Below are positions 4,634 through 64,000 of a stretch of 64,000 nucleotides of DNA, one piece after another. The DNA comes from Phyllobates terribilis (lineage: Eukaryota): assembly GCF_046119375.1 (NCBI RefSeq), contig NW_027362772.1, forward strand, positions 311,488,001 to 311,552,000, read 5' to 3'. Position 1 is the first letter of the stretch; every line of letters starts with the position of its first letter. The notes beneath the pieces were generated by a model that was given only the letters and a program-made list of their open reading frames with translations, did no database searches and was not told where the DNA came from. Both the position numbers and the translations under genes were made by a program.

Positions 4634-7600
4634 ATGAGTGTGAGCAGGGTGTGCAGGACGGGGGCGCTGCGGCTGCTGAACCACGGGGGCCAGGGGGCCA
4701 CAGCAGCCGCACACAGGGGCTTCAGGACATCCACAGCTTTACCGAAGGAGGATGAATTCACCAAAAGTAAGTGACCCCGCACAACATAGGGCACTGATAT
4801 GTATAAGCAGGGTGTGGAGTCTATAAGCCAAACCTACGACTCCGACCCCCTCATACACGGCTGCGACCCCCTCATTCACGACTCATGTGTAAGTGATAAA
4901 TTTACTGCAGCACAGATTCATCTCAGTAAAGTCCAGACCCTGAGATCAGGAATAGGACGGACATTTATAGGACATTTCAGAACTTTCCCAAATTCTAATG
5001 AAAAATATTCCCCACAAAACTGCATTGAACGACTGCACCCAATGTATTATATATTGTTGGAGTTGGTCCATTTTATACCGACTCCAGCTCCACAGCCCTG
5101 TGTGTGTGTGTGTGTGTATATATATATTATTTTACTCACTTATATAGTGCCATTAATTCCACAGCACTTTACAGACATTATCATCGCTGTCCCCATCGGG
5201 GCTCACAATCTACATTCCCTATCAGTATATCTTTGGATTGTGGGTAGAAACCCGAGAACACGGAGGAAACCCACGAAACACGGGGAGAACATACAAACTC
5301 CTTGCAGATGTCGTCCTTGGTGGGATTTGAACCCAGGACTCCAGCGCTGCAAGGCTGCAGTGCTAACCACTGAGCCACCATACAGTGCTAACCACTGAGC
5401 CACCATACAGTGCTAACCACTGAGCCACCATACAGTGCTAACCACTGAGCCACCATACAGTGCTAACCACTGAGCCACCATACAGTGCTAACCACTGAGC
5501 CACCATACAGTGCTAACCACTGAGCCACCATGCTGCCCTATATATAATGTGTGAGCAGTGACTGCAGCACTGTGTGCACAATCCCANNNNNNNNNNNNNN
5601 NNNNNNNNNNNNNNNNNNNNNNNNNNNNNNNNNNNNNNNNNNNNNNNNNNNNNNNNNNNNNNNNNNNNNNNNNNNNNNNNNNNNNNNNNNNNNNNNNNNN
5701 NNNNNNNNNNNNNNNNNNNNNNNNNNNTGTATCATCCTATTCTCTGTGTGATTAGTATGTTTTCCTCCCTGATCTGTGGCTGCACAGACGTTCCTGTCCC
5801 CATCGGTCCACATCGGCTGCTTCCCTATCAGCGAAGATGATTCTTTCACCTTTGGGGACTGTAGCAAGTTGTCTGACAACTGACAGTAGCTGCTGCACGG
5901 CCTCCTCACAGGTGTCACCGATAATTACTGAGGAAATAATGTCACATGACGGCTCGTTACTTCTGGACTCGTCACCTTGTATTAACCCCGTGGTGTAACG
6001 AGCCGTCACAACTGCTGACAATGCTGCTGATTGTGCACGAGATATCTCTGGTTATTGCTTAATATTAAAACTTAAAGACTAAACCCGTCATAAAGAATCA
6101 TCAGCTGTTTATGTATCAGCCTCATTACAAACTCCATACTGTTCAATACTGCTGACAACCAGCCTGTATATCATCATGTAGAGAGGTTGTCAGATCTGCC
6201 CCCTGGTGGTGACATCACTGACAGCACCGTCTGCTCGCCGTTGATCGTCTGTGATCGGATCATTATTTCTCTGTTTTCCTCCCAGTTCTCTCCCATGAGA
6301 TGCAGAAGATCCACAATAAAGTGCGGGACGCTCTGCCCGGCAGTGACTGGTCACCGTTGAAATCCATGGACCATATGCCGCCAGAACACTCGGACATCGT
6401 CATCGCAGGGGGCGGAGTCATGGGCTGGGCAGTTGCCTATTGGCTGATGAAAATGCAGACCAAGAAGAAAGCGTACAATGTGCTGGTGGTGGAGCGCGAC
6501 CCGACCGTGAGTCTCCTGGCAGGTCGGAGCGGCGCGCACAGATCGGAGCGGCGCGCTCTGCGCCGTCACTTTATCGTAACATTCAGATTTTAACGTGAAA
6601 GCGCCAACTGCAGGGCCGTTGTGACTATTACACCAGGGAGTTGCCTTGTAAGCAATTGTCTATTATTCATCATCTACCGGAATACAAGGTGTCATCCGCC
6701 CCAGATCCGATGCCCTATTGACAGCTGTTGAGTGGTCTGCGCCTCTGTGACCCCGTTATTTGTAGTATATTATACACCCTGCGAGCCGTGTACATGAGGC
6801 ATCCCAGAGGACCCAGGTAACGTTATGTAATAACTCCCTCTCTTCTCTCACCCCCAGTACTCTCACGCCTCCACCGTTCTCTCGGCAGGCGGCATCCGGC
6901 AGCAATTCTCCCGACCCGAAAACATCCAGATGTCGCTGTTTGGCGCCCATTTCCTGCGCAACATTAATGTAAGATGCCAGTAATGTAACAAAAGGGACCG
7001 ATGCAAAGAACCCACAGTACAGTCACTTATCACCTGCTATTATACTCCAGAGCTGCACTCACTATTCTGCTGGTGCAGTCACTGTGTACATACATTACAT
7101 TACTGATCCTGAGTTACCTCCTGTATTATACTCCAGAGCTGCACTCACTATTCTGCTGGTGCAGTCACTGTGTACATACATTACTGATCCTGAGTTACCA
7201 ACTGTATTATACTCCAGAGCTGCACTCACTATTCTGCTGGTGCAGTCACTGTGTACATACATTACTGGTCCTGAGTTACCTCCTGTATTATACTCCAGAG
7301 CTGCATTCACTATTCTGCTGGTGCAGTCACTGTGTACATACATTACATTACTGATCCTGAGTTACATCCTGCATTATACTCCAGAGCTGCACTCACTATT
7401 CTGCTGGTGCACTCACTGTGTACATACATTACATTACTGATTCTGAGTTACGTCCTGTATTATACTCCAGAGCTGCACTCACTATTCTGCTGGTGCAGTC
7501 ACTGTGTACATACATTACTGATCCTGAGTTACCAACTGTATTATACTCCAGAGCTGCACTCACTATTCTGCTGGTGCAGTCACTGTGTACATACATTACT

Positions 7601-24200: not shown

Positions 24201-26066
24201 GCACCCGCCTGTCCGCATCATACAGGGGCCACCCCCCCGCACCCGCCTGTCCGCATGTTACAGGGGCCGCCCCCCCGCACCCGCCTGTCCGCATGGTACA
24301 GGGGCCGCCCCCCCGCACCCGCCTGTCCGCATGGTACAGGGGCCGCCCCCCGCACCCACCTATCCGCATGGTACAGGGGCCGCCCCCCGCACCCACCTAT
24401 CCGCACGGTACAGGGGCCGCACCCGCCTGTCCGCATCATACAGGGGCCACCCGCCTGTTCGCATCATACAGGGGCCGACCCCCCGCACCCGCCTGTCCGC
24501 ACGGTACAGGGGCCGCCCCCACCTGTCCGCACGGTACAGGGGCCGCCCCCCGCACCCGCCTGTCCGCACGGTACAGGGGCCGCCCCCCCGCACCCGCCTG
24601 TCCGCACGGTACAGGGGCCGCGCCCCGCACCCGCCTGTCCGCACGGTACAGGGGCCGCGCCCCGCACCCGCCTGTCCGCACGGTACAGGGGCCGCGCCCC
24701 GCACCCGCCTGTCCGCACGGTACAGGGGCCGCGCCCCGCACCCACCTGTCCGCAACATACAGAGGCCGCCCCCCTGCACCCACCTGTCCGCATCGTACAG
24801 GGGCTGCTCCCCGGCACCCACCTGTCCATATTGTACAGGGGTCGCCCCCCCCCCCCGATCCACCTGTCCACGTCATACACGGGCCGCCCCCCTGCATCCA
24901 CCTGTCCACGTCATATAGTGTCCGTCCCTCCCACACCCATATGTCCGCACGGTACAGGGGCCGCCCCCCCCCCCAGCACCAGCCTGTCCGCACGGTACAG
25001 GGGCCGCCCCCCCTCCGCACCCACCTGTCTACATCGTACAGGGGCAGCCGCACCCACCTGTCCACGTCGTACAGAGGCCGTCCCCCCGCATCCGCCTGTC
25101 CGCACGGTACAGGGGCCGCCCCCCCCCCCGCACCCGCCTGTCTGCACGGTACAGGGCCGCCCCCCCCACACCCACCTGTCCGCACGGTACAGGGCCGCCC
25201 CCCCGCACCCAATTGTCCGCATGGTACAGGGGCCGCCCCCCCTCCGCACCCACCTGTCTACATCGTACAGGGGCAGCCACACCCACCTGTCCATGTCGTA
25301 CAGAGGCCGTCCCCCCGCATCCGCCTGTCCGCACGGTACAGGGGCCGCCCCCCCCCGCACCCGCCTGTCCGCACGGTACAGGGGCCGCCCCCCCCCCACC
25401 CGCCTGTCCGCACGGTACAGGGCCGCCCCCCCCACACCCGCCTGTCCGCACGGTACAGGGCCGCCCCCCCGCACCCAACTGTCCGCACGGTACAGGGCCG
25501 CCCCCCCGCATCCACCTGTCCACGTCATATAGGGGCTATCCCTCCCGCACCCACCTGTCCACGTCATACAGGGTGTTGGACACCTTCTGGATGACCTCCA
25601 CGTTGTGCTCGGCGGCCAGCTTCTCCACCTCGGCATCCCGCTGCCTTGCGTACGGCTCGGTGTCCACCTCGAATGTCAGACGCGTCACCTTCCACTTCCT
25701 GAAAAGCTGCGGGAAAACTTCTGCTGGTTTCCCTCGTACCACAAACAACCTGCACAGAAGTAATGAGCCCCCATGAGGCATAAGCTCCGCCCAGGAGAAG
25801 CCCCCGCTAGAGGGGCCACAGTGTAACCCCAGGGCCCCTTCTTACCTGGAGTTGATCCTCTTCAGGTTCTCGTCCAGATCTCGCAGGGACTCGATGAGGA
25901 ATCTCCAGCGGTTCACACTGACCTTCATGTTCTTAGGGAACCAGGGATCCAGAATGAAGATGGGCAGCAGCTGCTCGCAGTCCCTGATGGCGGCCAGCAG
26001 CGCCGGGTTATCATGGAGGCGCAGCCCCTTCCTGAACCAGTGGATGGAGCAGTGCGGAGGCGGCAT
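18229..26066 (-). CDS. cry5: (6-4) DNA photolyase (cry5 / 6-4 phr), ~521 aa, 10 coding exons
   Basis: Exons 26066-25846, 25749-25555, 22092-21974, 21888-21734, 21664-21524, 20349-20182, 19929-19789, 19710-19559, 19152-18926, 18275-18229. All GT-AG, total 1566 nt. Motifs [48 protein letters not shown]; short C-terminus SVAEFFKKK*. Closely follows Xenopus (6-4) photolyase as I recall it ([21 protein letters not shown], [14 protein letters not shown]). Confidence 0.93.
20390..21420. repeat. ~31-bp purine-rich minisatellite in photolyase intron 5
   Basis: Unit gaggcggcagaagggaagcgaaggagggagc (pyrimidine-rich on the coding strand). Confidence 0.95.
22160..25560. repeat. ~38-bp minisatellite filling photolyase intron 2, derived from the exon 2 end plus its 5' splice site
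   Basis: Unit cctgtccacatcgtacaggggccgcctctccacacccg; minus strand reads CTGTACGATGTGGACAG|G(T/C)GGGT versus the real junction CTGTATGACGTGGACAG|GTGGGT. Confidence 0.93.
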
Positions 26067-35802: not shown

Positions 35803-37011
35803 GTAACTCAGCAGTTTTCATCTTCAGTTCTGCAGTTACACTGTGTGCTGTAATCTTACTTCTGTTCTGATATTACAGGTAAGTCATGAGTGTAATTATC
35901 CGGCGTCTTCAGGACTTTCCTGTTCTGGCGCAGAGATTAATGTTTCCTGCCTGACATTTATTTTTACCTGCGGATGATTCAGAATCTTCCCTCAGTGATA
36001 ATGTCACGTGTGGATGTAAAGCGTCAGTACAATGGTGAGGAAGAGCAGTGATAGGATAATGGCTGCTGGAAGAGCTACTCACTCCCCTCAGTATTAGAGC
36101 TCGTACTGAACAGAAAGGAAAAACAGCAGGTAGCCGATATGAAAACAGGACCCAAACCTGGGAAACTCAGTCCTAAAGGCTGAACTATACTCCAGAGCAG
36201 CACTCACTATTCTGCTGGTGCAGTCACTGTGTACATACATTACATTACTGATCCTGAGTTACATCCTGTATTATACTCCAGAGCAGCACTCACTATTCTG
36301 CTGGTGCAGTCACTGTGTACATACATTACATTACTGATCCTGAGTTACATCCTGTATTATACCCCAGAGCTGCACTCACTATTCTGCTGGTGCAGTCACT
36401 GTATACATACATTACATTACTGATCGTGAGTTACATCCTGTATTATACCCCAGAGCTGCACTCACTATTCTGCTGGTGCAGTCACTGTATACATACATTA
36501 CATTACTGATCCTGAGTTACATCCTGTATTATACTCCAGAGCTGCACTCACTGTTCTGCTCGTGCAGTCACTGTGTACATACATTACATTACTGATCCTG
36601 AGTTACATCCTGTATTATACCCCAGAGCTGCACTCACTATTCTGCTGGTGCAGTCACTGTATACATACATTACATTACTGATCGTGAGTTACATCCTGTA
36701 TTATACTCCAGAGCTGCACTCACTGTTCTGCTCGTGCAGTCACTGTGTACATACATTACATTACTGATCCTGAGTTACATCCTGTATTATACCCCAGAGC
36801 TGCACTCACTATTCTGCTGGTATAGTCACTGTGTACATACATTACATTACTGATCCTGAGTTACATCCTGTATTATACCCCAGAGCTGCACTCACTATTC
36901 TGCTGGTGCAGTCAGTGTGTACATACATTACATTACTGATCCTGAGTTACATCCTGTATTATACTCCAGAGCTGCACTCGTTATTCTGCTGGTGCAGTCA
37001 GTGTGTACATA

Positions 37012-40000
37012 TGACGCGCCCCCTGGGCCAGTGCTGTTTGGGGGATTACCCGGAGCCGGATCAGATGGGGGTTGTAGTCTCCGAGTGGCGGCGACCCGGT
37101 CCGTGCCCAGGGTGTCAAGCTCAGTGTGTGGCAGTCTTTACAGATGTTATTGGTTGTTCTTAGTGTCGACTACGCCACCCGTTGGTTTGCGGTCAAAAGG
37201 CCGCCGCTCCAGCAGGGTCCGCTGAGGCTGGTGGTATATGTGCAGCTGTGGTGGTATAACCCCCAACGGGAGGGGTATAGCCTCAGGGGGTCAGGTGTAG
37301 AGGATGGTGGTAGTGGTGGTGCAGTGTGGATGTTAAGAAGACTCAGAGTCGGGCTGTGCAGTTCAGGGTTTTTACTTACTGCTGTTCTGTGGGTCACTCT
37401 GGCCTTGAGTGACCGCCCGAGCCGTGCTGCGTCCACCAGGTCCTGGACTCGGCCAACCCCCAAGCAATTCTGGAGCGTGGTCCTGAGCTCCCTTTCTGAC
37501 TGTCCTCTCTACTGGCCGTTCCCACCAGGGGTCCACTTATGTCCGGCTCCCTCGGGTCTCCTGTTGGGTGAACCTTCTTTGGCTTCCCTGACCCTATGCT
37601 CGGTGTGCCTTCTAGTGGACTTGGTGAGGGGCTGCTCCACATGTAATGTCGCAGCCTCCGGTTCTTAGCTGAGGGTAGTTTCTCTCCTCCACTAATTTGG
37701 GATCCGGTTCCCTTGCGTGCCAACCCTTCACCCTTCTGGTTGTATACTGGGTTCTTGGGGTTCCTTCTTCTTCCCCTCTGGGTCCTTCTCTTCTCCTCTC
37801 TCTCTGCAGGCTCTCCTGGACCTCTCTCAGGACCGACTGTCCCTCTACAAAAGACTGACTGACTGACTGACCCTGTCTCTAGATGGTACCCACCTTATAT
37901 ACTCCCTCTATGTGTGAGCTCAGGTGACCAGCACCCAATGAGCTCCTAGCCTTACCCAGACTGCTCCCCCTATCTGCCCCTACACTACTGGGATGTTCCA
38001 CCCCCCTCCCACTCCAGCCAGGGACAGACACTGTCGTACCTGCACATATACTGGTGGGAGTACCGTCGGTCTGTCCCCCGGAAATGGGATGTGTGTAGTG
38101 CATGCAGCCTACTGAGCTCAGTTCCACACTCCATCCTTACCCGGGAGTGGAATATCACACCTCTGGCTTGAGGTGTAATACCCCTGTAGCAGCCGAATCC
38201 TCAGGGTGCTACATTCCCCCCTGGTAAATCACAGCACGTCCTCGGGCTGTAAGAGAACAAAAACATCCAAAAACATACTTTTTTTTTTTTTTTTTCATAA
38301 CAACATAAACATATAAAACATTATATAAATATTATTAGCATAAAAACTTTCTCATAATTAACATTCTTGGAAACTCTCTTGCTCCTCCGGCCACGGTGCA
38401 ACTTGTGACCGGGTAAAGTGCGACAGTCTCTTCTGGAAAGAAAAACACAGCTTTCCTATAAAACCAGTAAGCGGCGCCTTTAAAAAGCGCAACTATATAC
38501 AAGGGGAGGTTTGGCCGCTCTCAGTCCTCGACCAGTGGGAATAGGGACACACGGGTTAAAGTTCAATTTGCTGGTCCCAACGGGGACTATAATGGTAACA
38601 GTTCTGGTACCCTGACGGGTAACTATGTACAGTCTCTTTACCGTACTTTAATGACGGCGTACTCCTGCTCCTTCTTCAGACCCGTCCGGGTCCTCTTGCT
38701 CCTCTTCACACCGTAGCTCCTCCTCCGTCAGCCGGTGTACATGGAGGGCGTAGGGTCCTTTGGCACACTTGTGCCGGGTGAACGTGACCTCGTCCCCTAC
38801 ATATAGGTCACGACCTCTGTGTCCCTCCGGTAGGTGGGACTCAACGTCTCTTCTGGTCACAAAGACGTCGCTGGGGGTGTGATGATCCCTGATGAAACCC
38901 CAACCATGCTGCAGTTGGAATTTAATTACAGTCCCGGTGGCACGGGGACCGTGGGCTGCACGGGGGTTCCTCCTGGTCCTGCTCTTCTGCCCTGCGCTCT
39001 GTTCCTGCAGCCGCTGCTCACGGACCCGCCTCTCTCTCCGTTCTTGCTCGAAGACTGCCAACTGCTGGCGGCAGCACTCCACACGCTCCGCTGCGGCTGC
39101 CCGAGTTTCCTGAGTGAACCCCGTGAGGTCTCCTCCGGTGGGGTCCCACTCGAACTGCGCTTCTTCCAGCGGGAGCGGGGTCCTCTTAACGGGCTTCGGA
39201 GCCGGAATCAGGGGCTCGCACAGGGGCCTTGCTTTTTGGAGTTCCAGTTGGTAGTACTCCGGTGGCCATTTAAAGGGCTGCCCATCCGGGCACGTATGCT
39301 GGGCAAATAGGTCTTCACCCAGGTGTGGCGCTGTGGATGTTGAGGGCGCGGTGGTGGTAGCGGCGCCCGGGTTCGCCAGGCCTTGCGACCAGGCCTGGGG
39401 TACCCTGAACGTAAAGGGCACCGTGAAGACGGCGGCGCCCGGGGTTACTTGGCCCAGCGACCAGGCCGGTGGTGTTTCCTGCTTTGCCGCGCTTAGGGTT
39501 GAGGCGCGTGACGTCACAGGGGTCGCGGCCGCGGCTTCTGCTTGAGGCCTTGTCTGGAGCGGTGACGATGCAGCGACGGGCACGGCAGGGGGAATTTCGG
39601 GCTCTGCGACGGGGAGCTGGGGCAGGCTCACGGTTTCCCGGCTCGGGGTAGTGACGTCCCCTTTACCTGCCTCCATCTGTTCAGCTCCCTCTTCGGCGCC
39701 GTCTCCGGCCTTCACTCCTCCTGCACCATCCTCAGAGGCGGTCTGTCTCCTCGTCTCGGGTGGCGTGCTTTGCTGGCGGGTTCTTGCCTGCAGGGCCATC
39801 TCTCGGCTCCACTCCGTCAGCGTCTCTCGCTGCACCTGGGCCATCCTCCATGCGAGGCGCTCCAGCGCGGTCTGCGCACACTCCCGGTCTCGGGGGAGCT
39901 GTGCCAGAATCTCCACTAAGCCTAGTGGGGTTGTTGCTTGCAGCAGGCTCCTGACCACTGGGTCGGTGCTGCCTGTCTCTCCTTCCATCTCCGGGTGTGC

Positions 40001-41700
40001 TTTCTCCAGACTCCTCCAGGCTGCACCCATCTTCGCTCTTTTCTTCTGTCTCCGCCCACATTGAGGGTGGTCCCGGGGCAACTTTGTGATTGTCAGTTCC
40101 AGGGGCAGTTCTCTCACGCTGATGGACATCTCTAGCATCACAGTCTCTGTTGGTGGGCGCGGTTTCCGCTTTTGGCGCCATTCCTTGACCTGGCCCACGA
40201 TGGGAGGTGACCTCTTGCCACCCTCTGGCACGCCCATAATGGCGTCCGCTCTTCCAAGGCGGGAAATCTTCTGGAAATGGCGGGAATCGTCTCCCAGTGG
40301 CGGGAAACTCCGTGGATGGCGGGAAAAAGCTGCAAATGGCGGGCAACCGGCGGGAGCCGACTTGTGATGGCGTCCGATGGCGGGGACCCTCCGGAACCGG
40401 CGGGAGACTTCTTTTTGAGGTAAATGTGTACTTTTCTTCAGGCACGCAGTACCCGGTGGTTGCGGGCACGAAATCCTGCCGACTACGCCAAAGTTGACGC
40501 GCCCCCTGGGCCAGTGCTGTTTGGGGGATTACCCGGAGCCGGATCAGATGGGGGTTGTAGTCTCCGAGTGGCGGCGACCCGGTCCGTGCCCAGGGTGTCA
40601 AGCTCAGTGTGTGGCAGTCTTTACAGATGTTATTGGTTGTTCTTAGTGTCGACTACGCCACCCGTTGGTTTGCGGTCAAAAGGCCGCCGCTGCAGCAGGG
40701 TCCGCTGAGGCTGGTGGTATATGTGCAGCTGTGGTGGTATAACCCCCAACGGGAGGGGTATAGCCTCAGGGGGTCAGGTGTAGAGGATGGTGGTAGTGGT
40801 GGTGCAGTGTGGATGTTAAGAAGACTCAGAGTCGGGCTGTGCAGTTCAGGGTTTTTACTTACTGCTGTTGTGCTGGTCACTCTGGCCTTGAGTGACCGCC
40901 CGAGCCGTGCTGCGTCCACCAGGTCCTGGACTCGGCCAACCCCCAAGCAATTCTGGAGCGTGGTCCTGAGCTCCCTTTCTGACTGTCCTCTCTACTGGCC
41001 GTTCCCACCAGGGGTCCACTTATGTCCGGCTCCCTCGGGTCTCCTGTTGGGTGAACCTTCTTTGGCTTCCCTGACCCTATGCTCGGTGTGCCTTCTAGTG
41101 GACTTGGTGAGGGGCTGCTCCACATGTAATGTCGCAGCCTCCGGTTCTTAGCTGAGGGTAGTTTCTCTCCTCCACTAATTTGGGATCCGGTTCCCTTGCG
41201 TGCCAACCCTTCACCCTTCTGGTTGTATACTGGGTTCTTGGGGTTCCTTCTTCTTCCCCTCTGGGTCCTTCTCTTCTCCTCTCTCTCTGCAGGCTCTCCT
41301 GGACCTCTCTCAGGACCGACTGTCCCTCTACAAAAGACTGACTGACTGACTGACTGACCCTGTCTCTAGATGGTACCCACCTTATATACTCCCTCTATGT
41401 GTGAGCTCAGGTGACCAGCACCCAATGAGCTCCTAGCCTTACCCAGACTGCTCCCCCTATCTGCCCCTACACTACTGGGATGTTCCACCCCCCTCCCACT
41501 CCGGCCAGGGACAGACACTGTCGTACCTGCACATATACTGGTGGGAGTACCGTCGGTCTGTCCCCCGGAAATGGGATGTGTGTAGTGCATGCAGCCTACT
41601 GAGCTCAGTTCCACACTCCATCCTTACCCGGGAGTGGAATATCACACCTCTGGCTTGAGGTGTAATACCCCTGTAGCAGCCGAATCCTCAGGGTGCTACA
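37012..41700 (-). mobile_element. Non-autonomous LTR retroelement copy 1 (4689 bp) carrying a cold-shock-domain ORF
   Basis: LTRs 41700-40495 (5', 1206 bp) and 38213-37012 (3', 1202 bp), TG..CA ends; TSD CATA; PBS TGGCGTAGTCGGCAGGAT 40490-40473 complementary to the tRNA-Ser 3' end (..ATCCTGCCGACTACGCCA); PPT AGGGGGGAA abutting the 3' LTR; TATATAA at 41388-41382. Confidence 0.95.
38648..40237 (-). CDS. 529-aa element-encoded protein with a C-terminal cold-shock domain (CSD ~38941-38729)
   Basis: TGTVIKFQLQHGWGFIRDHHTPSDVFVTRRDV...LYVGDEVTFTRHKCAKGPYALHV aligns by eye with the YBX/LIN28/CspA CSD (GTVKWFN..GYGFI....DVFVH....L..GE.VEF....G.KG..A.NV). Preceded by a coiled-coil-like E/R/Q segment. 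No RT, IN or CCHC motif. Confidence 0.85.
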   Translation of the reverse strand: MGVPEGGKRSPPIVGQVKEWRQKRKPRPPTETVMLEMSISVRELPLELTITKLPRDHPQCGRRQKKRAKMGAAWRSLEKAHPEMEGETGSTDPVVRSLLQATTPLGLVEILAQLPRDRECAQTALERLAWRMAQVQRETLTEWSREMALQARTRQQSTPPETRRQTASEDGAGGVKAGDGAEEGAEQMEAGKGDVTTPSRETVSLPQLPVAEPEIPPAVPVAASSPLQTRPQAEAAAATPVTSRASTLSAAKQETPPAWSLGQVTPGAAVFTVPFTFRVPQAWSQGLANPGAATTTAPSTSTAPHLGEDLFAQHTCPDGQPFKWPPEYYQLELQKARPLCEPLIPAPKPVKRTPLPLEEAQFEWDPTGGDLTGFTQETRAAAAERVECCRQQLAVFEQERRERRVREQRLQEQSAGQKSRTRRNPRAAHGPRATGTVIKFQLQHGWGFIRDHHTPSDVFVTRRDVESHLPEGHRGRDLYVGDEVTFTRHKCAKGPYALHVHRLTEEELRCEEEQEDPDGSEEGAGVRRH

Positions 41701-42093
41701 CATACATTACTGATCCTGAGTTACATCCTGTATTATACTCCAGAGCTGCACTCACTGTTCTGCTGGTGCAGTCACTGTGTACATACATTACATTACTGAT
41801 CCTGAGTTACATCCTGTATTATACTCCAGAGCTGCACTCACTATTCTGCTGGTGCAGTCACTGTGTACATACATTACATTACTGATCCTGAGTTACATCC
41901 TGTATTATACTCCAGAGCTGCACTCACTATTCTGCTGGTGCAGTCACTGTGTACATACATTACATTACTGATCCTGAGTTACCTCCTGTATTATACTCCA
42001 GAGCTGCACTCACTATTCTGCTGGTGCAGTCACTGTGTACATACATTACATTACTGATCCTGAGTTACATCCTGTATTATACTCCACAGCTGC

Positions 42094-45000
42094 TGACGCG
42101 CCCCCTGGGCCAGTGCTGTTAGGGATACCCGGAGCCGGATCAGATGGGGGTTGTAGTCTCCGAGTGGCTGTGACCCGGTCCGTGCCCAGGGTGTCAAGCT
42201 CAGTGTGTGGCAGTCTTTATGATGTTACTAGATGTTCTTTTGTGTCGACTACGCCACCCGTTGATTTGCGGTCACTACGGCCGCCGCTGCAGCAGGGTCC
42301 GCTGAGGCTGGTGATGTGAGTGCAGCTTAGGTAGTATAACCCCCAACGGGAGGGGTATAGCCTCAGGGGGTCAGCCGTGGAGGATGGTGGTTGTGAAGGT
42401 GCAGCAAGGAGACTCAGAGGCATAAAATGCAGTTCCAGGGTTTTACTTACTGGTGTTGCTCGGGTCACTGTGTACAGCAGTGACCACCCAAGCCGTGCTG
42501 CGTCCACCAGGTCCTGGACTCGGTCGACTCCCAGGCAACTCCGGAGTGTGGTCCTGAGCTCCTTTCTGTCTCTCCCTTCTTCTGGCCGTTCCCACCAGGG
42601 ATCCACCTAAGTCCGGCTCCCTCGGGCCTCTTGTTGGTCAAGCCTCCTCTGGGCTCCCTGACCCTATTCTTGGTCTGCCTTCCGGGTGGATTTGGTGGGT
42701 GATCGTGGCAGATCCTGCCCACGACCTCCGGTTCCTGGCTAAGGTGTGCTGTAGCCTCTGCCAGCTTGGGATCCGGTACCCTGTTGCCGACCCTTCACCC
42801 TATTAGCTCTCTTATGGGCTCTTGGGGTCCCCTCTGCGCCTCTGGGTCTCTCTCTCTTCTCCTCTGCTCTGCTTCTCAGGTTACACTCTGACAGACTGAC
42901 GTCTCACAGACTGACAACTGACTGACCGACTGACCCTGATCTAAGATGGTGCCCACCTTATATACTCCCTCTATGTGTGAGCTCAGGTGACCAGCACCCA
43001 ATGAGCTCCTAGCTTTACCCAGGCTGCTCCCCCTATCTGCCCCTACACTACTGGGATGTTCCACCCCCCTCCCACTCCAGCCAGGAACAGACACTGTCGT
43101 ACCTGCACATTTCTCTAGTGGGAGTACCATCGGTCTGTTCCCCGGAAATGGGATGTGTGTAGTGCATGCAGCCTACTAGCTCAGTTCCACACTCCATCCT
43201 TACCCGGGAGTGGAATATCACACCTCTGGGTTGAGGTGCAATACCCCTGTAGCAGCCGAATCCTCAGGGTGCTACATTCCCCCCTGGTAAATCACAGCAC
43301 GTCCTCGGGCTGTAAAATATAAACATCCAAAACATACAAAATTTTTTTTTTTTCATAAACATATAAAACATATAAAACATCATATACATCATCAGCAGCA
43401 ATAAACTCTTCATATAAAAACTTTTCATAAATAACATTCTTGTTTCTGGTTCCTCCGGTCACGGTGCAACTTGTGACCGGGTAAAGTGCTACAGTCTCTT
43501 GAAGAAAACAGTTTCCTATAAAACCGGTAGGGGGCGCTTTAGGAAGCGCAACTATATACAAGGGAAATATGGCCGCTCTCAGTCCTCGGCCAGGTATTAG
43601 GAACTAGGGACACACGGGCATCAGTTCAATTGGCTGGTCCCAACGGGGACTATATTTTAACTAGAACAGTTCTTATACCCTGACGGGTAACTATGTACAG
43701 TCTCTTTACCGTACTTTAACGACGGCGTCCTCCTGCTCCTTCTTTAGATTCTTCAGACCCGTCCGGGTCCTCTTGCTCCTTCTCACACCGCAGCTCCTCC
43801 TCCGTCAGGCGATGCACATGGAGGGCGTAGGGTCCTTTGGCACACTTGTGCCGGGTGAAGGTGACCTCGTCCCCTACATACAGGTCACGACCTCTGTGTC
43901 CCTCCGGCAGATGGCTTTCTACGTCTCTGCGAGTTACAAAGACGTCGCCGGGGGTCTGATGGTCTCTGTTAAAGCCCCATCCGTGCTGCATGTTGAATTT
44001 TATCACAGTCCCGGTGGAAGGGGGACCATGTGCTGCACGGGGATTCCTCCTGGTCCGGCTCTTCTGCTCCGCGCTCCTTATCTGCGCTTGCTGTTCCCGG
44101 ACCCGCCTCTCTCTCCGCTCCCTCTCGAAGACCTCGAGCTGCTGCCGGCAGCACTCTGCACGCTCTGCTGCGGCCGCCCGAGTCTCCTGAGTGAACCCCA
44201 TGAGGTCTTCTCCGGTGGGGTCCCACTCGAACTGTGCCTCCTCCAGCGGGGGCGAGGTCCTCTTTACGGGCTTCGGAGCCGGAATCAGGGGCTCGCACAT
44301 GGGCCTTGCTCTCTGGAGTTCCAGCTGAATGTACTCCTGGGGCCATATGAAGGGCTGCCCATCCGGGCACGTATGCTGGGCAAATAGATTTTCACCCAGG
44401 TGCGGCACTCTAGATGTTGAGGGCGCGTTGATGGTAGTGGCGCCCGGGTCGACCAGGCCTTGCGACCAGGCTTGGGGCACCCTAAAGGCAAAGGGCACCG
44501 TAAGAACGGCGGCGCCCGTGGTTACTCGGCCCTGCGACCAGGCCGGTGGCTCCGCGGAGGTAGGGGGCGCTGTTGGAATTGCGGCGCCCGGGTGTACTAG
44601 GCCTTGCGACCAGGCCGGTGGTATTTCCTGCTTGGCCACGCTCGAAGTCGAGGCGTGTGACGTCACAGGGGTCGCGGCCGCGGTTTCCGGTTGAGGCCTA
44701 GTCGGCGGCGGTGACGATGCAGCGACGGGCACGGCAGGGGGAACTTCGGGCTCTGCGACGGGGAGCTGGGGCAGGCACGCGGTTTCCCGGCTCGGGGTAG
44801 AGACGTCCCCTTTACCTGCCCCCATTCGTTCAGCTCCCTTCTCGGCGCCGTCTCCGGCCTTGAGTCCTCCTGCACCATCCTCAGAGGCGGTCTGTCTCCT
44901 CGTCTCGGGTGGCGTGCTCCGCTGACGGGTTCCGGTCTGCTGGGCCATCTCTCGGCTCCACTCCGCCAACGTCTCTCGCTGCACCCGGGCCATCCTCCGT

Positions 45001-46867
45001 GCGAGGCCCTCCAGCGCGGTCTGTGCACACTCCCGGTCTCGGGGGAGCTGTGCTAGGATCTCCAGCAGGCCTTCTGGAGTGGCGACCTGCAACAGGCTCC
45101 TGACCACTGGGTCGGTGCTGCCTGACTCTCCCTCCATCTCCGGGTAGGCTCTCTCTGGACTCTCTTCCAGACGTCTTGTCTCCGGGTGCGCTCTCTCCAG
45201 ACTGCTCCAGGCGACACCCATCTTTGTTCTCTTCTTCTGTCTCCGCCCACATTTAGGGTGGTCCCGGGGCAACTTTGTGATTGTCAGTTCCAGGGGCAGT
45301 TCTCTTACGCTGATGGACACTTCCAGCATCACAGTCTCTGTTGGTGGGTGCGGTTTCCGCTTTTGGCGCCATTCTTCGACCTGGCCCACGATGGGAGGTG
45401 GCCTTTTGCCACCCTCTGGCACGCCCATAATGGCGTCCGCTCTTCCAAGGCGGGAAATCTTTGGAAATGGCGGGAATCGTCTCCCAGTGGCGGGAAACTC
45501 CATGGATGGCGGGAAAAAGCTGCAAATGGCGGACAACTGGCGGGAAACGACCTGTGATGGGGTCCGTTGGCGGGGACCCTCCGGAACCGGCGGGAGACTT
45601 CTTTTTAAGGTAACGGTGTACTTTTCTTCAGGCACGCAGTACCCGGTTGTTGCGGGCACGTGATCCTGCCGACTACGCCAAAGTTGACGCGCCCCCTGGG
45701 CCAGTGCTGTTAGGGATACCCGGAGCCGGATCAGATGGGGGTTGTAGTCTCCGAGTGGCTGTGACCCGGTCCGTGCCCAGGGTGTCAAACTCAGTGTGTG
45801 GCAGTCTTTATGATGTTACTAGATGTTCTTTTGTGTCGACTACGCCACCCGTTGATTTGCGGTCACTACGGCCGCCGCTGCAGCAGGGTCCGCTGAGGCT
45901 GGTGATGTGAGTGCAGCTTAGGTAGTATAACCCCCAACGGGAGGGGTATAGCCTCAGGGGGTCAGCCGTGGAGGATGGTGGTTGTGAAGGTGCAGCAAGG
46001 AGACTCAGAGGCATAAAATGCAGTTCCAGGGTTTTACTTACTGGTGTTGCTCGGGTCACTGTGTACAGCAGTGACCACCCAAGCCGTGCTGCGTCCACCA
46101 GGTCCTGGACTCGGTCAACTCCCAGGCAACTCCGGAGTGTGGTCCTGAGCTCCTTTCTGTTTCTCCCTTCTTCTGGCCGTTCCCACCAGGGATCCACCTA
46201 AGTCCGGCTCCCTCGGGCCTCTTGTTGGTCAAGCCTCCTCTGGGCTCCCTGACCCTATTCTTGGTCTGCCTTCCGGGTGGATTTAGTGGGTGATCGTGGC
46301 AGATCCTGCCCACGACCTCCGGTTCCTGGCTAAGGTGTGCTGTAGCCTCTGCCAGCTTGGGATCCGGTACCCTGTTGCCGACCCTTCACCCTATTAGCTC
46401 TCTTATGGGCTCTTGGGGTCCCCTCTGCGCCTCTGGGTCTCTCTCTCTTCTCCTCTGCTCTGCTTCTCAGGTTACACTCTGACAGACTGACGTCTCACAG
46501 ACTGACAACTGACTGACTGACTGACCCTGATCTAAGATGGTGCCCACCTTATATACTCCCTCTATGTGTGAGCTCAGGTGACCAGCACCCAATGAGCTCC
46601 TAGCTTTACCCAGGCTGCTCCCCCTATCTGCCCCTACACTACTGGGATGTTCCACCCCCCTCCCACTCCAGCCAAGAACAGACACTGTCGTACCTGCACA
46701 TTTCTCTAGTGGGAGTACCATCGGTCTGTTCCTCGGAAATGGGATGTGTGTAGTGCATGCAGCCTACTAGCTCAGTTCCACACTCCATCCTTACCCGGGA
46801 GTGGAATATCACACCTCTGGGTTGAGGTGCAATACCCCTGTAGCAGCCGAATCCTCAGGGTGCTACA
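42094..46867 (-). mobile_element. Non-autonomous LTR retroelement copy 2 (4774 bp), a diverged subfamily of copy 1
   Basis: LTRs 46867-45685 and 43276-42094 (both 1183 bp); TSD CTGC; same tRNA-Ser PBS at 45680-45663 and same PPT. Confidence 0.95.
43716..45428 (-). CDS. 570-aa element-encoded cold-shock-domain protein (CSD ~44020-43806)
   Basis: Homologous to the copy 1 ORF from the shared MGVPEGG start. The 690-aa track ORF extends upstream, but that part is frameshifted in copy 1. Confidence 0.85.
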   Translation of the reverse strand: MGVPEGGKRPPPIVGQVEEWRQKRKPHPPTETVMLEVSISVRELPLELTITKLPRDHPKCGRRQKKRTKMGVAWSSLERAHPETRRLEESPERAYPEMEGESGSTDPVVRSLLQVATPEGLLEILAQLPRDRECAQTALEGLARRMARVQRETLAEWSREMAQQTGTRQRSTPPETRRQTASEDGAGGLKAGDGAEKGAERMGAGKGDVSTPSRETACLPQLPVAEPEVPPAVPVAASSPPPTRPQPETAAATPVTSHASTSSVAKQEIPPAWSQGLVHPGAAIPTAPPTSAEPPAWSQGRVTTGAAVLTVPFAFRVPQAWSQGLVDPGATTINAPSTSRVPHLGENLFAQHTCPDGQPFIWPQEYIQLELQRARPMCEPLIPAPKPVKRTSPPLEEAQFEWDPTGEDLMGFTQETRAAAAERAECCRQQLEVFERERRERRVREQQAQIRSAEQKSRTRRNPRAAHGPPSTGTVIKFNMQHGWGFNRDHQTPGDVFVTRRDVESHLPEGHRGRDLYVGDEVTFTRHKCAKGPYALHVHRLTEEELRCEKEQEDPDGSEESKEGAGGRRR

Positions 46868-48478
46868 CTGCACTCACTATTCTGCTGGTGCAGTCACTGT
46901 GTACATACATTACATTACTGATCCTGAGTTACATCCTGTATTATACTCCAGAGCTGCACTCACTATTCTGCTGGTGCAGTCACTGTGTACATACATTACA
47001 TTACTGATCCTGAGTTATATCCTGTATTATACTCCAGAGCTGCGCTCACTATTCTGCTGGTGCAGTCACTGTGTACATACATTACATTACTCATCCTGAG
47101 TTACATCTTGTATTATACTTCAGAGCTGCACTCACTATTCTGCTGGTGCAGTCACCGTGTACATACATTACATTACTGATCCTGAGTTACATCCTGTATT
47201 ATACTCCAGAGCTGCACTCACTATTCTGCTGGTGCAGTCACTGTGTACATACATTACATTACTGACCCTGAGTTACCTCCTGTATTATACTCCAGAGCTG
47301 CACTCACTATTCTGCTGGTGCAGTCACTGTGTACATACTGTACATTACATTACTGATCCTGAGTTACATCCTGTATTATACTCCAGAGCTGCACTCACTA
47401 TTCTGCTGGTGCAGTCACTGTGTACATACATTACATTACTGATCCTGAGTTATATCCTGTATTATACTCCAGAGCTGCGCTCACTATTCTGCTGGTGCAG
47501 TCACTGTGTACATACATTACATTACTCATCCTGAGTTACATCTTGTATTATACTCCAGAGCTGCACTCACTATTCTGCTGGTGCAGTCACCGTGTACATA
47601 CATTACATTACTGATCCTGAGTTACATCCTGTATTATACTCCAGAGCTGCACTCACTATTCTGCTGGTGCAGTCACTGTATACATACATTACATTACTGA
47701 TCCTGAGTTACATCCTGTATTATACGCCAGAGCTGCACTCGTTATTCTGCTGGTGCAGTCACTGTGTACATACATTACATTACTGATCCTGAGTTACATC
47801 CTGTATTATACTCCAGAGCTGCACTCACTATTCTGCTGGTGTAGTCACTGTGTACATACATTACTGATCCTGAGTTACATCCTGTATTATACTCCAGAGC
47901 TGCACTCACTATTCTGCTGGTACAGTCACTGTGTACATACATTACATTACTGATCCTGAGTTATATATCCTGTATTATCCTCCAGAGCTGCACTCAGTAT
48001 TCTGCTGGTGCAGTCACTGTGTACATACATTACATTACTGATCCTGAGTTACATCCTGTATTATCCTCCAGAGCTGCACTCACTATTCTGCTGGTGTAGT
48101 CACTGTGCACATACATTACATTACTGATCCTGAGTTACCTCCTGTATTATACCCCAGAGCTGCACTCACTATTCTGCTGGTGCAGTCACTGTGCACATAC
48201 ATTACATTACTGATCCTGAGTTACCTCCTGTATTATACTCCAGAGCTGCACTCACTATTCTGCTGGTGCAGTCACTGTGTACATACATTACAACTACCAC
48301 AATGCAGCACCAGTCAGTGTGTACAGACACTGAACAAGTAACTATCAGCCAGGATATCTGATGTCTGCAGCTGCACTATGAATGCAGCTCTGGCTGTGAC
48401 TGACACATGTGAAGCTTCTGCTTTATTCATTTCCTTTGAAACAAATCTTCATTATTATTTTTTTTTAGGCTTTTGGAA

Positions 48479-49049
48479 ATGGGTTCAAGGGAGAGTAAAT
48501 CCAAGTCGCCCCCCAGGATTCTTGCGAGTCTGGACCATGGGAGCAGAATCAGAGCCGTGACCAGCGGCCGCAGTATGCCAATGCAGCCAGTGCAGTCCAC
48601 TAGTCGTGCGCCCGTCCCTGTGTGGCCGGACAGCAGCGTGCGCTGGCAGAGTCAGTACGATGTCTACATCTGCCACAGCGAGGCCGACGGCTCTTATGCC
48701 ATGGAGATGCTGTCATACCTGGAGCAGCAGCCAGAGAAGCTGCGCTGCTTCCTACCCATGAGGGACATGCAGGCGGGGGGTCCGATACCCTCGGAGATGT
48801 GCAGCGGCTTAGAAAGCAGCCACTGCTGGGTGATGCTGCTGACCCCACAGTTCCTCTCTGATAGCTGGTGTAAATACCAGATGCACCAGTTCCTGGCACA
48901 AGCGCCATGCTCCAATGGGCGATTAATCCCGGTTATCATTGGACTGTCATTTGCGCAGTACCCATCAGTAGTGAAGCATATGTATGCCATCAAGGGCGCG
49001 CTCAGTGACCCCAGTGTGTTCTCAAAAGTCAAAGAAGCCATAGTAACAT
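48479..49049 (+). CDS. TIRAP: TIR domain-containing adaptor protein (Mal), main coding exon; terminal exon not identified
   Basis: RWQSQYDVYICHSEAD..LRCFLPMRDMQAGGPIPSEMCSGLESSHCWVMLLTPQFLSDSWCKYQM..KVKEAIVT matches the TIRAP TIR domain. Acceptor at 48468, donor T|GTAAGT at 49049/49050; syntenic with SRPRA and FOXRED1. Confidence 0.92.
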
Positions 49050-49072
49050 GTAAGTACAATTCTCCAAATCCC

Positions 49073-59923: not shown

Positions 59924-62900
59924 TGTTACGGGTCCGGGTGGTGGAACCTCTGTGCCGAGGTGCAAGGAGGGACCCAGAGGGGCGTGACTAAGTATCCACC
60001 CGAACCGACCCTGGTCGTACGCCAGCAAACGACACCGTGACCAGGGAGGATCCGGGCTGAGGGACCAGGTGCTACTCTGGGGACGACCTTGTAAGAGAGC
60101 AGGTGGCTCCCACAGGTCAGATGGCAGGGACTGACCAGTATGGCGGATGGACACGGCAAGCAGGCGGAAGTCTCTGGTAGCAGACAGGTGGTCACAGTTC
60201 GAGAAAGCAGGGCAAGTAGCAGTCTTTAGGTTTACCAGGAAGGTGGTCACAGCAAGTGACGGCAGGGTCTCCAGGCAAGGCTGGCAGGAAACAGGCAGGT
60301 GCTCCCAGGTGAGCAGGCAGACAGATGAGGCAGGTAACTGGCAGGTAACTGGTGGGTGCTCCCAGGTGAGCCGGCAGACAGACGAGGCAGGTAACAGGTG
60401 GGCGCTCCCAGGTGAGCGGTCTGACAGACAAGGCAGCCGGATGCTCCCAGGTGAGCGGACAGATAGCCAAGGCAGGTAACCGACAGGTAACAGGTGAGCG
60501 CTCCAGGTGAGCAGGCTGGCAGGTAACGGGCAGGCAGGACGAGAAGTCAGGCTAGCAGCGGGACCTGAGGGCTGAAGCACAGATCAGACACAGTGCAAAC
60601 AACTTTGCTCGGGCACCTCCATTTTGGAGGAGGTGCCTTATATATGGGAGGTCCTCCGGCAATTGGCCGGGGACTCCTTAGGACGGCGCGCGGTCCCTTT
60701 AAGAGAGGGGGAGCGCGCGCGCGCCCTAAGCACACAGCCGGGGAAGGAGCGCGTGCCGGAAGCAGCGGGGACAGAAGCGCTAGAGGACGCCGCGCCAGGA
60801 GCGGGAAGGTTAGAGGGACGGCGTCTCTGCCTAGCAAGGGGCAGAGACGCCGATGCTACAGTACCCCCCCCCCCCTTTAGGCCCCCTCTTTTTTAGGCCA
60901 GAAAGAAATTTTTCAAGGAGAAGCGGGGCGTTGATGTTCTCCCTGGGTTCCCAAGTTCTCTCCTCGGGACCAAATCCCTTCCAATCTACCAGAAAAAAGG
61001 TCTTTCCTCTTACCCTCTTGGTGGCCAGAATACTGTCTACCTCAAAGACGTCTTCAGCGGAAACCGGAGCAGGGGGAGCACCTGGATTGTTGGAAAAAGA
61101 GTTAAAGACAACGGGTTTGAGGAGAGATACGTGGAAGGAGTTGGGAATCCGTAAGGTGGCCGGGAGTTTTAATTTGTAGGCCACTGGATTAATTTGCCTG
61201 AGGATTTCGAAAGGGCTGATGAAGCGAGGACCTAACTTGTAGGAGGGTATCTTGAGCCGTACATGTTTGGAGGAGAGCCAAACCTTGTCCCCCGGACGGA
61301 ATTGAGGCGGATCCAGACGTCTCTTATCAGCATATTTCTTCATCCGCTCGGAGGACAGAAGAAGTGCGGACCTAGTGCTCTCCCAAATAGTAGAAAACTC
61401 GCTGACAAGAGACTGCGCGGCAGGGTTGTCCACAGAGGCGGAGACGGGAAACGGAATCCGGAGGTGCTGGCCATAGACAATAAAGAACGGGGACTTGGAA
61501 GAGGATTCACTCTCGTGGTTATTATAAGAGAACTCGGCCCAAGGAAGGAGGTCCACCCAATCAGAATGGTGGGCATTAACAAAGTGCCGGAGATAGCTGG
61601 TAAGGATCTGATTGATCCGCTCCACTTGACCATTGAACTGAGGGTGGTAAGCGGAGGAGAAATCCAGGGTGACGTCTAGCAGTTTACATGTGGCTCTCCA
61701 GAAGCGTGAGGTGAACTGAACCCCTCGATCCGACACGATGTGGAGGGGTAGGCCATGGAGACGGAAGATATGACAAAGAAATCCTTGGCCAGCTCAGGTG
61801 CAGACGGGAGACCAGGCAGGGGAATGAAGTGGGCCATTTTAGAAAAGCGGTCCGCGACTACCCAAATGACAGTACACCCGGCAGAAACAGGGAGATCGGT
61901 AATGAAGTCCATAGCGATGTGTTGCCACGGGGCAACAGGTATGGGAAGCGGCAGGAGATGACCAGCTGGTAAGTGTCTGGGAACTTTGTTGCGACCACAA
62001 GATGAACAGGCAGAGACGAAGTCTACCACATCCTTACGCAGGGTAGACCACCAGTAATGCCGGGAAATGAGTAGGAAGGTCTTCTTTTGGCCGGCATGGC
62101 CAGCTAGTTTAGAAGAATGACCCAGAACCTTCTCACGGTCAGGAGCCGCCACGAATGTCTTGCCGGGTGGTAGACGAGTCAAATCCAAGGGGGCCACATT
62201 CATCACCTTGGAGGGGTCGATAATGTGCATAGGCTCCTCCTCTTGGTCGGAGGACAGGAAGGATCGAGACAAGGCATCAGCTTTGACATTTTTGTCCGCC
62301 GGGCGGAAATGAAGGATGAAATCGAAGCGGGCAAAATACAAAGACCACCGGGCCTGACGTGGATTAAGTCTCTGGGCATTTTGGAGATATGCCAGGTTTT
62401 TGTGATCCGTGTAGATGATCACCGGGTATAGAGCCCCTTCAAGCAGATAGCACCACTCTTCAAGCGCCAATTTGACGGCCAGCAGTTCTCGGTCTCCTAT
62501 GGAGTAATTGTGCTCAGAGGAGGAGAAGATTTTGGAGAAAAAGCCGCAGGTTACCATTCTCCCAGATGAAGACTTTTGGGTGAGCACCGCTCCGGCTCCA
62601 GAAGAGGAAGCATCAACCTCCAGGTAGAACTGTTTGTTGCAGTCCGGACGGTGCCGCACAGGGGCAGAGGAGAAGGCTTGCTTCAGGGAAAGGAAGGCCT
62701 CCTCAGCTTCGGATGACCATACCTTGGGATTTGCTCCCTTACGGGTGAGCGCAGATATGGGCGCAGTCCGTGACGAGAAGTGAGGAATGAAGAGACGATA
62801 GTAATTAGCGAAGCCCAGGAATCGCTGTATCGCCTTCAAGCCCTCCGGACGGGGCCACTTTAGGACAGCAGAGAGCTTCTCGGGATCCATTCGCAAGCCT

Positions 62901-64000
62901 GTCTGGGAGATAACATAGCCTAGAAATGGAAGAGAGGTCTGCTCAAAAAGGCACTTCTCGTATTTAGCATAGAGGTGGTTCTGCCTGAGCCTAAGCAGGA
63001 CGTGACGAACATCCCTCCGGTGTGTGGGAAGATCCGGAGAGAAGACCAAGATGTTGTCCAGGTATACCACCACGCAGGAGTAAAGAAGGTCACGGAAGAT
63101 GTCGTTGACCAGTTCTTGGAAGACGGCGGGAGCATTGCAGAGACCGAAGGGCATCACACGGTACTCATAGTGTCTGTCCCGGGTATTAAATGCTGTTTTC
63201 CACTCGTCTCCCTGACGGATACGGACCAGGTTATATGCTCCACGTAGATTCAGCTTGGAAAAGATCCTGGCACCTTTAAGGCGATCAAATAACTCAGAGA
63301 TGAGCGGAAGGGGGTATTTATTTTTAACCGTGATCTGATTGAGTCCTCTATAGTCAATACAGGGGCGTAGCGAGCCATCCATTTTTTTGACAAAGAAGAA
63401 TCCGGCTCCAGCCGGGGAAGTAGACTTCCGGATGAATCCCCTGGCCAGATTTTCCTCTATGTACTCAGACATGGCCCGGGTTTCAGCCGCAGACAACGGA
63501 TAAATACGCCCACGGGGTGGAGTGGCGCTAGGTACCAGGTCGATCGGGCAATCATATGGCCTATGAGGTGGCAATGTCTCTGCTTCCTTTTTACCGAAGA
63601 CATCAGCATAGGGCCAGTAAGGAGCCGGAAGACCGGGTAAATTAGCTGGGGTAGGTGGAGGACGAACCGGAACCAGGCAGGTCTTATGGCAGAGCGGCCC
63701 ACACCGGAGTACTTCACCGGAATGCCAGTTCAACACGGGTTCATGTGTCTGGAGCCAAGGTAGGCCTAGCAATAGGGAGTGGGAGATTCCGGGCAACACA
63801 TGGAAGGAGATTACCTCAGAGTGCAGCATTTCCACCTGCAGGGTTATGGGTTCCGTGACGAGCAGGATGGTCACCGAAAGGAGTCTTCCATCCACGGAGG
63901 CGACTGACAAAGGTTCAGCCAGAGACTTGGTGGGAATATGGTATTTCTCAACCAGGGACTGAGAGATGAGGTTTCCAGCGGATCCAGAGTCCAGATGGGC
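59924..64000 (-). mobile_element. Ty3/Gypsy chromodomain LTR retrotransposon (3' LTR 60860-59924, PPT ~60861-60890, pol continues off the right edge)
   Basis: LTR TG..CA; poly-G PPT; PR LDSG (63992-63984), RT, RNase H, integrase HHCC and SDRG motifs, GPF motif, chromodomain (FEVDSILATK..FLVDWKGFGPEERTWEP). Confidence 0.95.
60880..64000 (-). pseudogene. Gypsy pol (PR-RT-RH-IN-chromo), inactivated
   Basis: Frameshift near 61780 inside the integrase; YLDD changed to YLDN and KLDLR changed to KLNLR. Confidence 0.88.

Follow-up and report, generated by a model that had tools for sequence, protein, structure and literature searches.

Long terminal repeat (LTR) retrotransposons that are non-autonomous should, by expectation, either shed their coding capacity or retain gag alone. 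As described in the accessible part of PMC13570524, TRIM and LARD elements are non-coding inside, and TR-GAG elements carry a single open reading frame (ORF), which is the gag of their helper. Here we describe a non-autonomous LTR retrotransposon found in two copies in a 64,000-nucleotide (nt) stretch of the genome of the frog Phyllobates terribilis (contig NW_027362772.1, positions 311,488,001 to 311,552,000; hereafter the window). It resembles the described classes in its LTRs, primer-binding site (PBS), polypurine tract (PPT) and target-site duplication (TSD), in its lack of pol and in its apparent dependence on a partner. Unlike TRIM and LARD, it has an ORF under selection, and unlike in TR-GAG this ORF has no similarity to gag; at its conserved core lies a cold-shock domain (CSD) of cellular type, which the likely helper lacks. 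A cold-shock protein that is under selection and is not a gag makes the element a variant of its own among these retrotransposons, and the finding is larger than first noted.

A single-gene LTR element in two copies

Both copies lie on the minus strand, and the ORF of each is its sole gene, set between TG...CA LTRs together with a PBS, a PPT and a 4-bp TSD. No gag or pol, and no reverse transcriptase (RT) or integrase, was detected between the LTRs of the window elements, and Rfam gave 0 matches in window positions 37000–47000. The 1.2-kb LTRs within each copy are 99.4–99.6% identical, and both copies are young. The PBS is presumably of tRNA-Ser type, with a match to the 3′ end of that tRNA. 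The features, in window positions, are as follows.

37012–41700, minus strand: copy 1, complete non-autonomous LTR element (TSD TATG, LTR ends)
40495–41700, minus strand: copy 1 5′ LTR, 1206 nt, TG...CA; differs from the 3′ LTR by 5 mismatches and one 4-nt indel
40473–40490, minus strand: copy 1 PBS
40238–40494, minus strand: copy 1 leader, 257 nt, without coding constraint
38648–40237, minus strand: copy 1 ORF, 529 amino acids (aa)
38984–39112, minus strand: predicted charged helix, long and possibly a coiled coil, that precedes the CSD; omega 0.14
38735–38938, minus strand: copy 1 CSD (PF00313), aa 434–501; omega 0.079 across copies
38214–38647, minus strand: copy 1 3′ untranslated region (UTR), with the PPT at its end
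37012–38213, minus strand: copy 1 3′ LTR, 1202 nt
42094–46867, minus strand: copy 2, complete non-autonomous LTR element (TSD GCAG)
45685–46867, minus strand: copy 2 5′ LTR, 1183 nt; 7 mismatches against the 3′ LTR
45663–45680, minus strand: copy 2 PBS
43716–45428, minus strand: copy 2 ORF, 570 aa from the shared MGVPEGG start
43812–44015, minus strand: copy 2 CSD, aa 472–539, with a private GWGFN change
42094–43276, minus strand: copy 2 3′ LTR, 1183 nt
36186–48292, no strand: 86-bp tandem repeat array, insertion site of both copies (pieces 36186–37011, 41703–42093 and 46868–48292)

The copy 1 protein has a basic N-terminus, a helix (residues 118–156), a Pro/Ala/Thr linker, a long helix (376–418), the CSD and an acidic tail. 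In a Pfam profile search the CSD was the sole match of the ORF (33.6 and 28.8 bits; cut-off 27). A model predicted from a 20-sequence alignment comprises a 48-residue helix and a five-strand OB barrel, and Foldseek matched the modelled CSD to CspA (E 6e-7, target TM-score 0.91) and to the YBX2 CSD (E 9e-7); a full-length single-sequence model (pLDDT 44) was too poor to judge the fold, and an ESM Atlas search (best score 0.84) gave a lead only. G-W-G, D-V-F-V, R-R, D and Y are invariant in 47 of 47 intact ORFs, and F448 is kept in 46 of them. According to the accessible part of PMC7825780, CSD motifs are RNP1, [YF]-G-F-I, and RNP2, [YF]-[YF]-H; the element CSD has W-G-F-I as its RNP1 and an RNP2-like DVFV strand without the His.

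A large family with a constrained cold-shock domain

The genome measures 10.57 Gb and contains the junction of LTR end and PBS at 24,538 places. An element-type CSD motif occurs at least 26,066 times (reversed control, 0), a lower bound because copy 2 and a second clade described below do not match the motif; roughly, the family amounts to about 1% of the genome (26,066 × 4.7 kb against 10.6 Gb). Among 100 sampled junctions, 60 carried a CSD (46 with an intact ORF, 14 with a broken or different start), 21 belonged to gag- and pol-bearing elements, 5 were helper-derived without pol seen, 10 were CSD-family elements without a CSD and 4 were other. The copies are dispersed, with independent TSDs (a matched 4-bp TSD at 51 of 68 CSD-family loci), and the 21 gag–pol loci represent an autonomous partner that shares their cis signals. 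Median LTR mismatch is 0.1% in intact copies (n = 44) and 0.45% in broken copies, which are older (n = 12). Because intact ORFs differ among themselves by up to 27% although the copies are young, the frame must have survived many rounds of replication. In 4 of 9 sequencing runs, contigs span the element in 29–30 of 30 bins; these runs may be DNA and therefore say nothing about expression.

Selection was assessed on 47 intact ORFs, that is, the 46 sampled and the two window copies minus the distant L121 (48 with L121). Codon-model omega was 0.079 in the CSD, 0.144 in the helix, 0.45 in the N-terminus and 0.56 in the linker; the RT region of the helper gave 0.075 (13 helper copies of 18 tried), and the element CSD is thus as constrained as the helper RT. 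Shared variants numbered 17 nonsynonymous (N) to 73 synonymous (S) in the CSD versus 288 to 318 in the rest of the ORF (P = 2e-7), with P = 0.048 for the CSD against the adjoining helix. Bootstrapping gave 0.096 (0.04–0.18) for the CSD versus 0.38 (0.33–0.44) for the rest, and the lowest 73-codon windows of a sliding scan start at codons 433–445. For variants present 1, 2–3, 4–9 and 10 or more times, the variant ratio vN/vS fell from 0.76 through 0.43 and 0.39 to 0.19 across the ORF, and ran 0.68, 0.05, 0.13 and 0.08 in the CSD (124 multi-step codons excluded). This fall with frequency is the signature of selection during retrotransposition. Leaders of 256 nt (n = 21) read in the ORF frame had 18 N to 5 S shared variants, no sign of constraint. 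The leader was also considered as an upstream coding extension; it is open in many copies, yet 257-, 231- and 114-nt leaders break the frame and its shared variants are unconstrained, and we rejected this idea.

An earlier note on the window had proposed that the ORF is under purifying selection, strongest in the CSD, and is not decaying cargo, naming dN/dS across many copies as the check. Both claims are borne out by the 47 copies and by older families: omega is 0.079 in the CSD and at most 0.56 elsewhere in the ORF, not near 1. Its observations on the window pair also hold. The codons for VTRRDVESHLP differ at 10 of 33 nt with the peptide unchanged, and the peptide is encoded in 46 of 48 intact copies by 23 different DNA sequences. 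The ORFs of 529 and 570 aa differ by three in-frame gaps (42, 72 and 9 nt in the DNA alignment), and a single 1-nt indel upstream of the start falls in the 256/257-nt leader; the LTRs of the two copies differ by 27 indels and the 3′ UTRs by 15, mostly not multiples of three. The argument built on the gaps depends on three events, two of which, the 14- and 24-codon gaps, are repeat-unit deletions private to copy 1, lying between in-frame internal repeats. The GWGFN change, which the note had entered as a caveat, is indeed present in copy 2 and is likewise private. Each of these changes occurs in 1 of 48 intact and 0 of 58 near copies, so they say little about selection. For the window pair, dN/dS is 0.28–0.36 over the whole ORF for kappa 1–4 (P <= 1e-9 against neutrality) and 0.14–0.18 in the CSD; the pair alone does not separate the CSD from the rest (Fisher P = 0.12).

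Older families keep the helix and CSD, with other N-termini and a second PBS variant, and three of them (L070, L083 and L085) retain only Met, CSD and tail. Omega is about 0.2 in the families so reduced, and dN/dS is 0.16–0.36 for six pairs of greater depth and for three taken among the CSD-only families. A second deep clade has different, 1.03-kb LTRs, the same PBS, a 4-bp TSD, a 2.6-kb interior and an unrelated N-terminus around the CSD; its elements (L237, L238, L254–L263) often lie in tandem arrays with a 3.63-kb period. Among 40 divergent loci fetched, a flanking LTR pair was seen at 26, and the interval that it encloses contained gag or pol in 0 of these.

Named homologs (6 of 6 looked up) come from Phyllobates terribilis, Ranitomeya variabilis, R. 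imitator, Anomaloglossus baeobatrachus and Bufo bufo, and form one frog clade with the element CSDs (support 98/95). The tree, which contains no intact host YBX or LIN28 row, indicates no donor of the CSD. The homolog from Bufo carries a Y-box-like gene annotation, and three tandem, LTR-less CSD ORFs of the element clade (L071/L234, L235 and L236; G000:C4:791.48-791.52 Mb) group with the Bufo protein. This cluster, which shares about 35% identity with the window protein and is broken in part, may be an old remnant, a domesticated copy or a source gene. At G000:C1:734.44 Mb (L061–L066) we observed an intronless, presumably CSDE1-like processed copy that is LINE-interrupted and partly duplicated. 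In two database gene models (P0002 and P0003) the element ORF is joined either with a Harbinger-type nuclease region or with R3H/coiled-coil protein 1; these models are likely annotation artefacts or exonisation. The family contaminates gene models as 'uncharacterized' or 'Y-box-like' proteins.

A likely helper and a possible role for the protein

A Ty3/gypsy family with a PNMA-like gag (L105 type) is the likely helper that mobilises the CSD elements, judging from shared sequence. Its single 1695-aa ORF contains PNMA-like gag (capsid match E 5e-5, below the Pfam cut-off), a CCHC zinc knuckle, protease, RT, RNase H and integrase but lacks a CSD; the order protease, RT, RNase H, integrase differs from the Gmr1-like order, in which integrase is upstream of RT. 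An RT motif that represents the helper clade in the wider sense was counted 21,293 times in the genome. CSD elements and helper have in common the U5 end, the PBS and the first ~60 leader nt (about 80% identity over 340–370 nt), as well as the PPT and the 4-bp TSD. Flanks of L091–L232 reveal a target preference, TG-N4-CA, in both: TG stands two bases before the TSD in 29 of 68 CSD elements and 10 of 24 helpers (background 7%), and CA follows it in 29 of 51 and 3 of 7. This preference may explain the two insertions in the 86-bp array of the window. Two elements (L124 and L141) are recombinants in which a leader or LTR of the helper adjoins sequence of the CSD family. Together with the shared ends and the target preference, they suggest mobilisation in trans by the partner.

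Two short LTR motifs were also observed. A second PBS-like 11-mer lies ~160 nt before the LTR end (window 40650–40660, 37167–37177, 45837–45847 and 42246–42256, minus strand) and is present in 91 of 100 sampled elements, helpers included; because it changes along with the PBS in families of the other PBS variant, a second tRNA contact is suggested. AACATC, for which the papers searched did not bear out a presumed link to FRGY2, occurs in the last 900 nt of the 5′ LTRs (L091–L232). All 46 of 46 CSD elements have it, as do 16 of 21 helpers, in each case in sense orientation; it may be a CSD site, a lead only, since shared descent makes it no independent evidence.

Elsewhere in the window, a fragmented, chromodomain-bearing Ty3/gypsy pol (60831–63829, minus strand) is ~35% identical to the helper RT and unrelated to the CSD elements. 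An exon with a TIR domain lies just past the 86-bp array (48479–49057, plus strand) and is presumably TIRAP-like, by synteny with a putative FOXRED1-like exon near 13592 that has no Pfam match; positions 5587–5727 are 141 N.

This is a high-copy non-autonomous LTR retrotransposon with a CSD under purifying selection; we consider it fairly probable that it is mobilised by a Ty3/gypsy helper and that the CSD binds the RNA encoding it and thereby raises that copy's chance of being copied. The protein would then best be read as a cis-preferring, RNA-binding accessory protein of a parasitic element. The helper would supply capsid, RT and integrase; the ORF would be translated in the germ line; and the CSD would coat its own transcript, much as mRNA is packaged and stabilised by the Y-box proteins of germ cells. 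The transcript would thereby be protected, or be brought to helper particles, for which it competes with helper RNA and CSD-less derivatives. That Y-box proteins package and stabilise oocyte mRNA, as set out in the accessible parts of PMC7226217 and PMC7825780, makes such coating plausible in a frog. The frequency test used above is applied in PMC9073684, according to whose accessible part the pattern arises only if a product favours its own copy, or if sparse expression mimics this.

Several points weigh against this reading. Expression of the element, translation of its ORF and binding by its CSD are steps that we infer, and the helper link rests on shared cis signals. The sample comprises the first 100 of the 24,538 junctions, all within the first 32 Mb of contig C1, and because the copies are recombinant mosaics the variant counts are not independent events. 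Cis-targeting is not established for Ty1 in the accessible part of PMC9073684, where sparse expression is named as something that could mimic cis preference. Trp65 and His87, RNA-contact residues of YBX1 (PMC7226217, accessible part), align with Lys and Thr/Asn in the element CSD; its specificity would therefore differ, and a Y-box-like specificity cannot be assumed. Finally, four different junctions that remove the CSD occur at 452, 94, 62 and 8 dispersed places, and five of the ten CSD-less elements in the sample lie in two tandem arrays. We had considered that such copies spread only with a helper leader, and rejected this because three of the junctions (62, 94 and 8 places) keep the CSD family's own leader. 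Since CSD-less derivatives spread, the protein is advantageous and not strictly required in cis, and because they can borrow machinery its advantage would be graded. The earlier note was thus right that the protein is selected, but too strong in calling it functionally required by the element lineage; it named neither a helper nor the level of selection.

The strongest competing reading has the protein acting in trans, as a silencing suppressor, an RNA-export or translation factor, or an activator of the LTR that binds single-stranded DNA (ssDNA), with per-copy selection arising from the few loci expressed per germ cell. The amplification of CSD-less derivatives is what a shared product would predict, the ORF has an acidic tail, CSDs bind ssDNA as well as RNA (PMC7825780, accessible part), and sparse expression is a cited route to apparent cis preference (PMC9073684, accessible part). 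Even so we judge it unlikely: with tens of thousands of young copies and heavy subfamily recombination, several copies must be co-expressed per cell, free riders make up just about 10–13 of the 100 sampled elements, and helpers lack the CSD although they would gain from it.

The other explanations are less likely. That the ORF is a remodelled Gag building its own particle, with the CSD in place of a zinc-knuckle nucleocapsid, would suit its position directly after the PBS, its helical stretches, its C-terminal RNA-binding domain and the TR-GAG precedent (PMC13570524, accessible part). We rejected a gag origin on sequence, as no capsid family was matched in Pfam and no similarity to the helper Gag-Pol was found (best E 3.1); with an N-terminal omega of 0.45–0.56, families reduced to Met and CSD, and an unrelated N-terminus in the second clade, a Gag role is very improbable. 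We give just as little credence to selection at the level of the host, with a domesticated CSD gene or source locus passively copied. The LTR-less three-copy cluster and the Y-box-like annotation in Bufo speak for it, but that cluster is distant from the window protein and partly broken, intact ORFs as divergent as those seen here fall into numerous subfamilies that recombine, changes found in one copy only are close to neutral, and the stop codons of broken copies sit at different places. A long open frame protects against nonsense-mediated decay, yet the notion that an open frame is all that matters, or that RNA structure is constrained rather than protein, is largely refuted and barely credible, because the protein sequence stays fixed where synonymous sites are free to change, even by switches between the codon families of Ser and Arg, and constraint peaks on the CSD fold.

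We also advance, tentatively, a wider proposal that we would not yet call probable: hyloid frogs would host an old, still active, satellite-like LTR class with one gene only, for a captured cold-shock protein that would mark its own RNA and divert it into gypsy-helper particles. This class would outnumber the helper ~3:1 through protein-based cis preference, would have undergone helper and primer switches, and would have contributed to the inflation of poison-frog genomes.

Comparison with known systems

LINE-1 ORF1p likewise has a long helix followed by an RNA-binding domain and shows cis preference for its own RNA; it offers an analogy of working for the frog protein, although it is a trimer with an RRM fold and belongs to a non-LTR element. 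That a non-autonomous LTR element holds an RNA-binding domain unrelated to gag at RT-level constraint implies that some step in the life cycle of LTR elements is open to improvement by a passenger to its own benefit. Whether LTR retrotransposons show cis preference is an open question (PMC9073684, accessible part); it is testable here because intact, CSD-only and CSD-less variants coexist naturally.

We found no description of a CSD protein in an LTR retrotransposon in the literature searched, which did not extend to Repbase, Dfam or subscription journals, so that a database name may exist. The accessible parts of PMC11152451, PMC12208295, PMC12822217 and PMC4131045 had no match for 'cold shock', and the frog domain table of PMC4131045, as far as accessible, has no entry for 'cold' or 'CSD'. 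Much repeat DNA in this frog group is unclassified (PMC12208295 and PMC11152451, accessible parts), and bacterial Csp genes are described in a tunicate, not inside elements, in that of PMC7540406.

Compared with Ty3/gypsy elements (Metaviridae) with a PNMA-like capsid, as presented in the accessible parts of PMC11011659 and PMC4131045, the helper matches the gypsy order, and the window elements keep the cis signals only. The plant aORFs (PMC7264820) and the CERV protein of Cer1 (PMC10309623) are extra element-encoded proteins that may act on element RNA; in the accessible parts of these sources they sit in autonomous elements beside gag-pol, and none is reported as a CSD. With YBX1, YBX2 (FRGY2), LIN28 and CspA (PMC7825780 and PMC7226217, accessible parts) the element protein shares the CSD fold, a GWGFI RNP1 and a DVFV RNP2-like strand at ~30% identity. 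The near-invariant CSD, Trp65/His87 pair and charged-repeat tail that define the Y-box family are absent, both residues being replaced. Unlike Y-box proteins and LIN28, the element CSD has added RRDVE and GWY/GPY motifs and no Y-box tail or LIN28 knuckles, falls in a frog clade of its own and is encoded by a mobile element.

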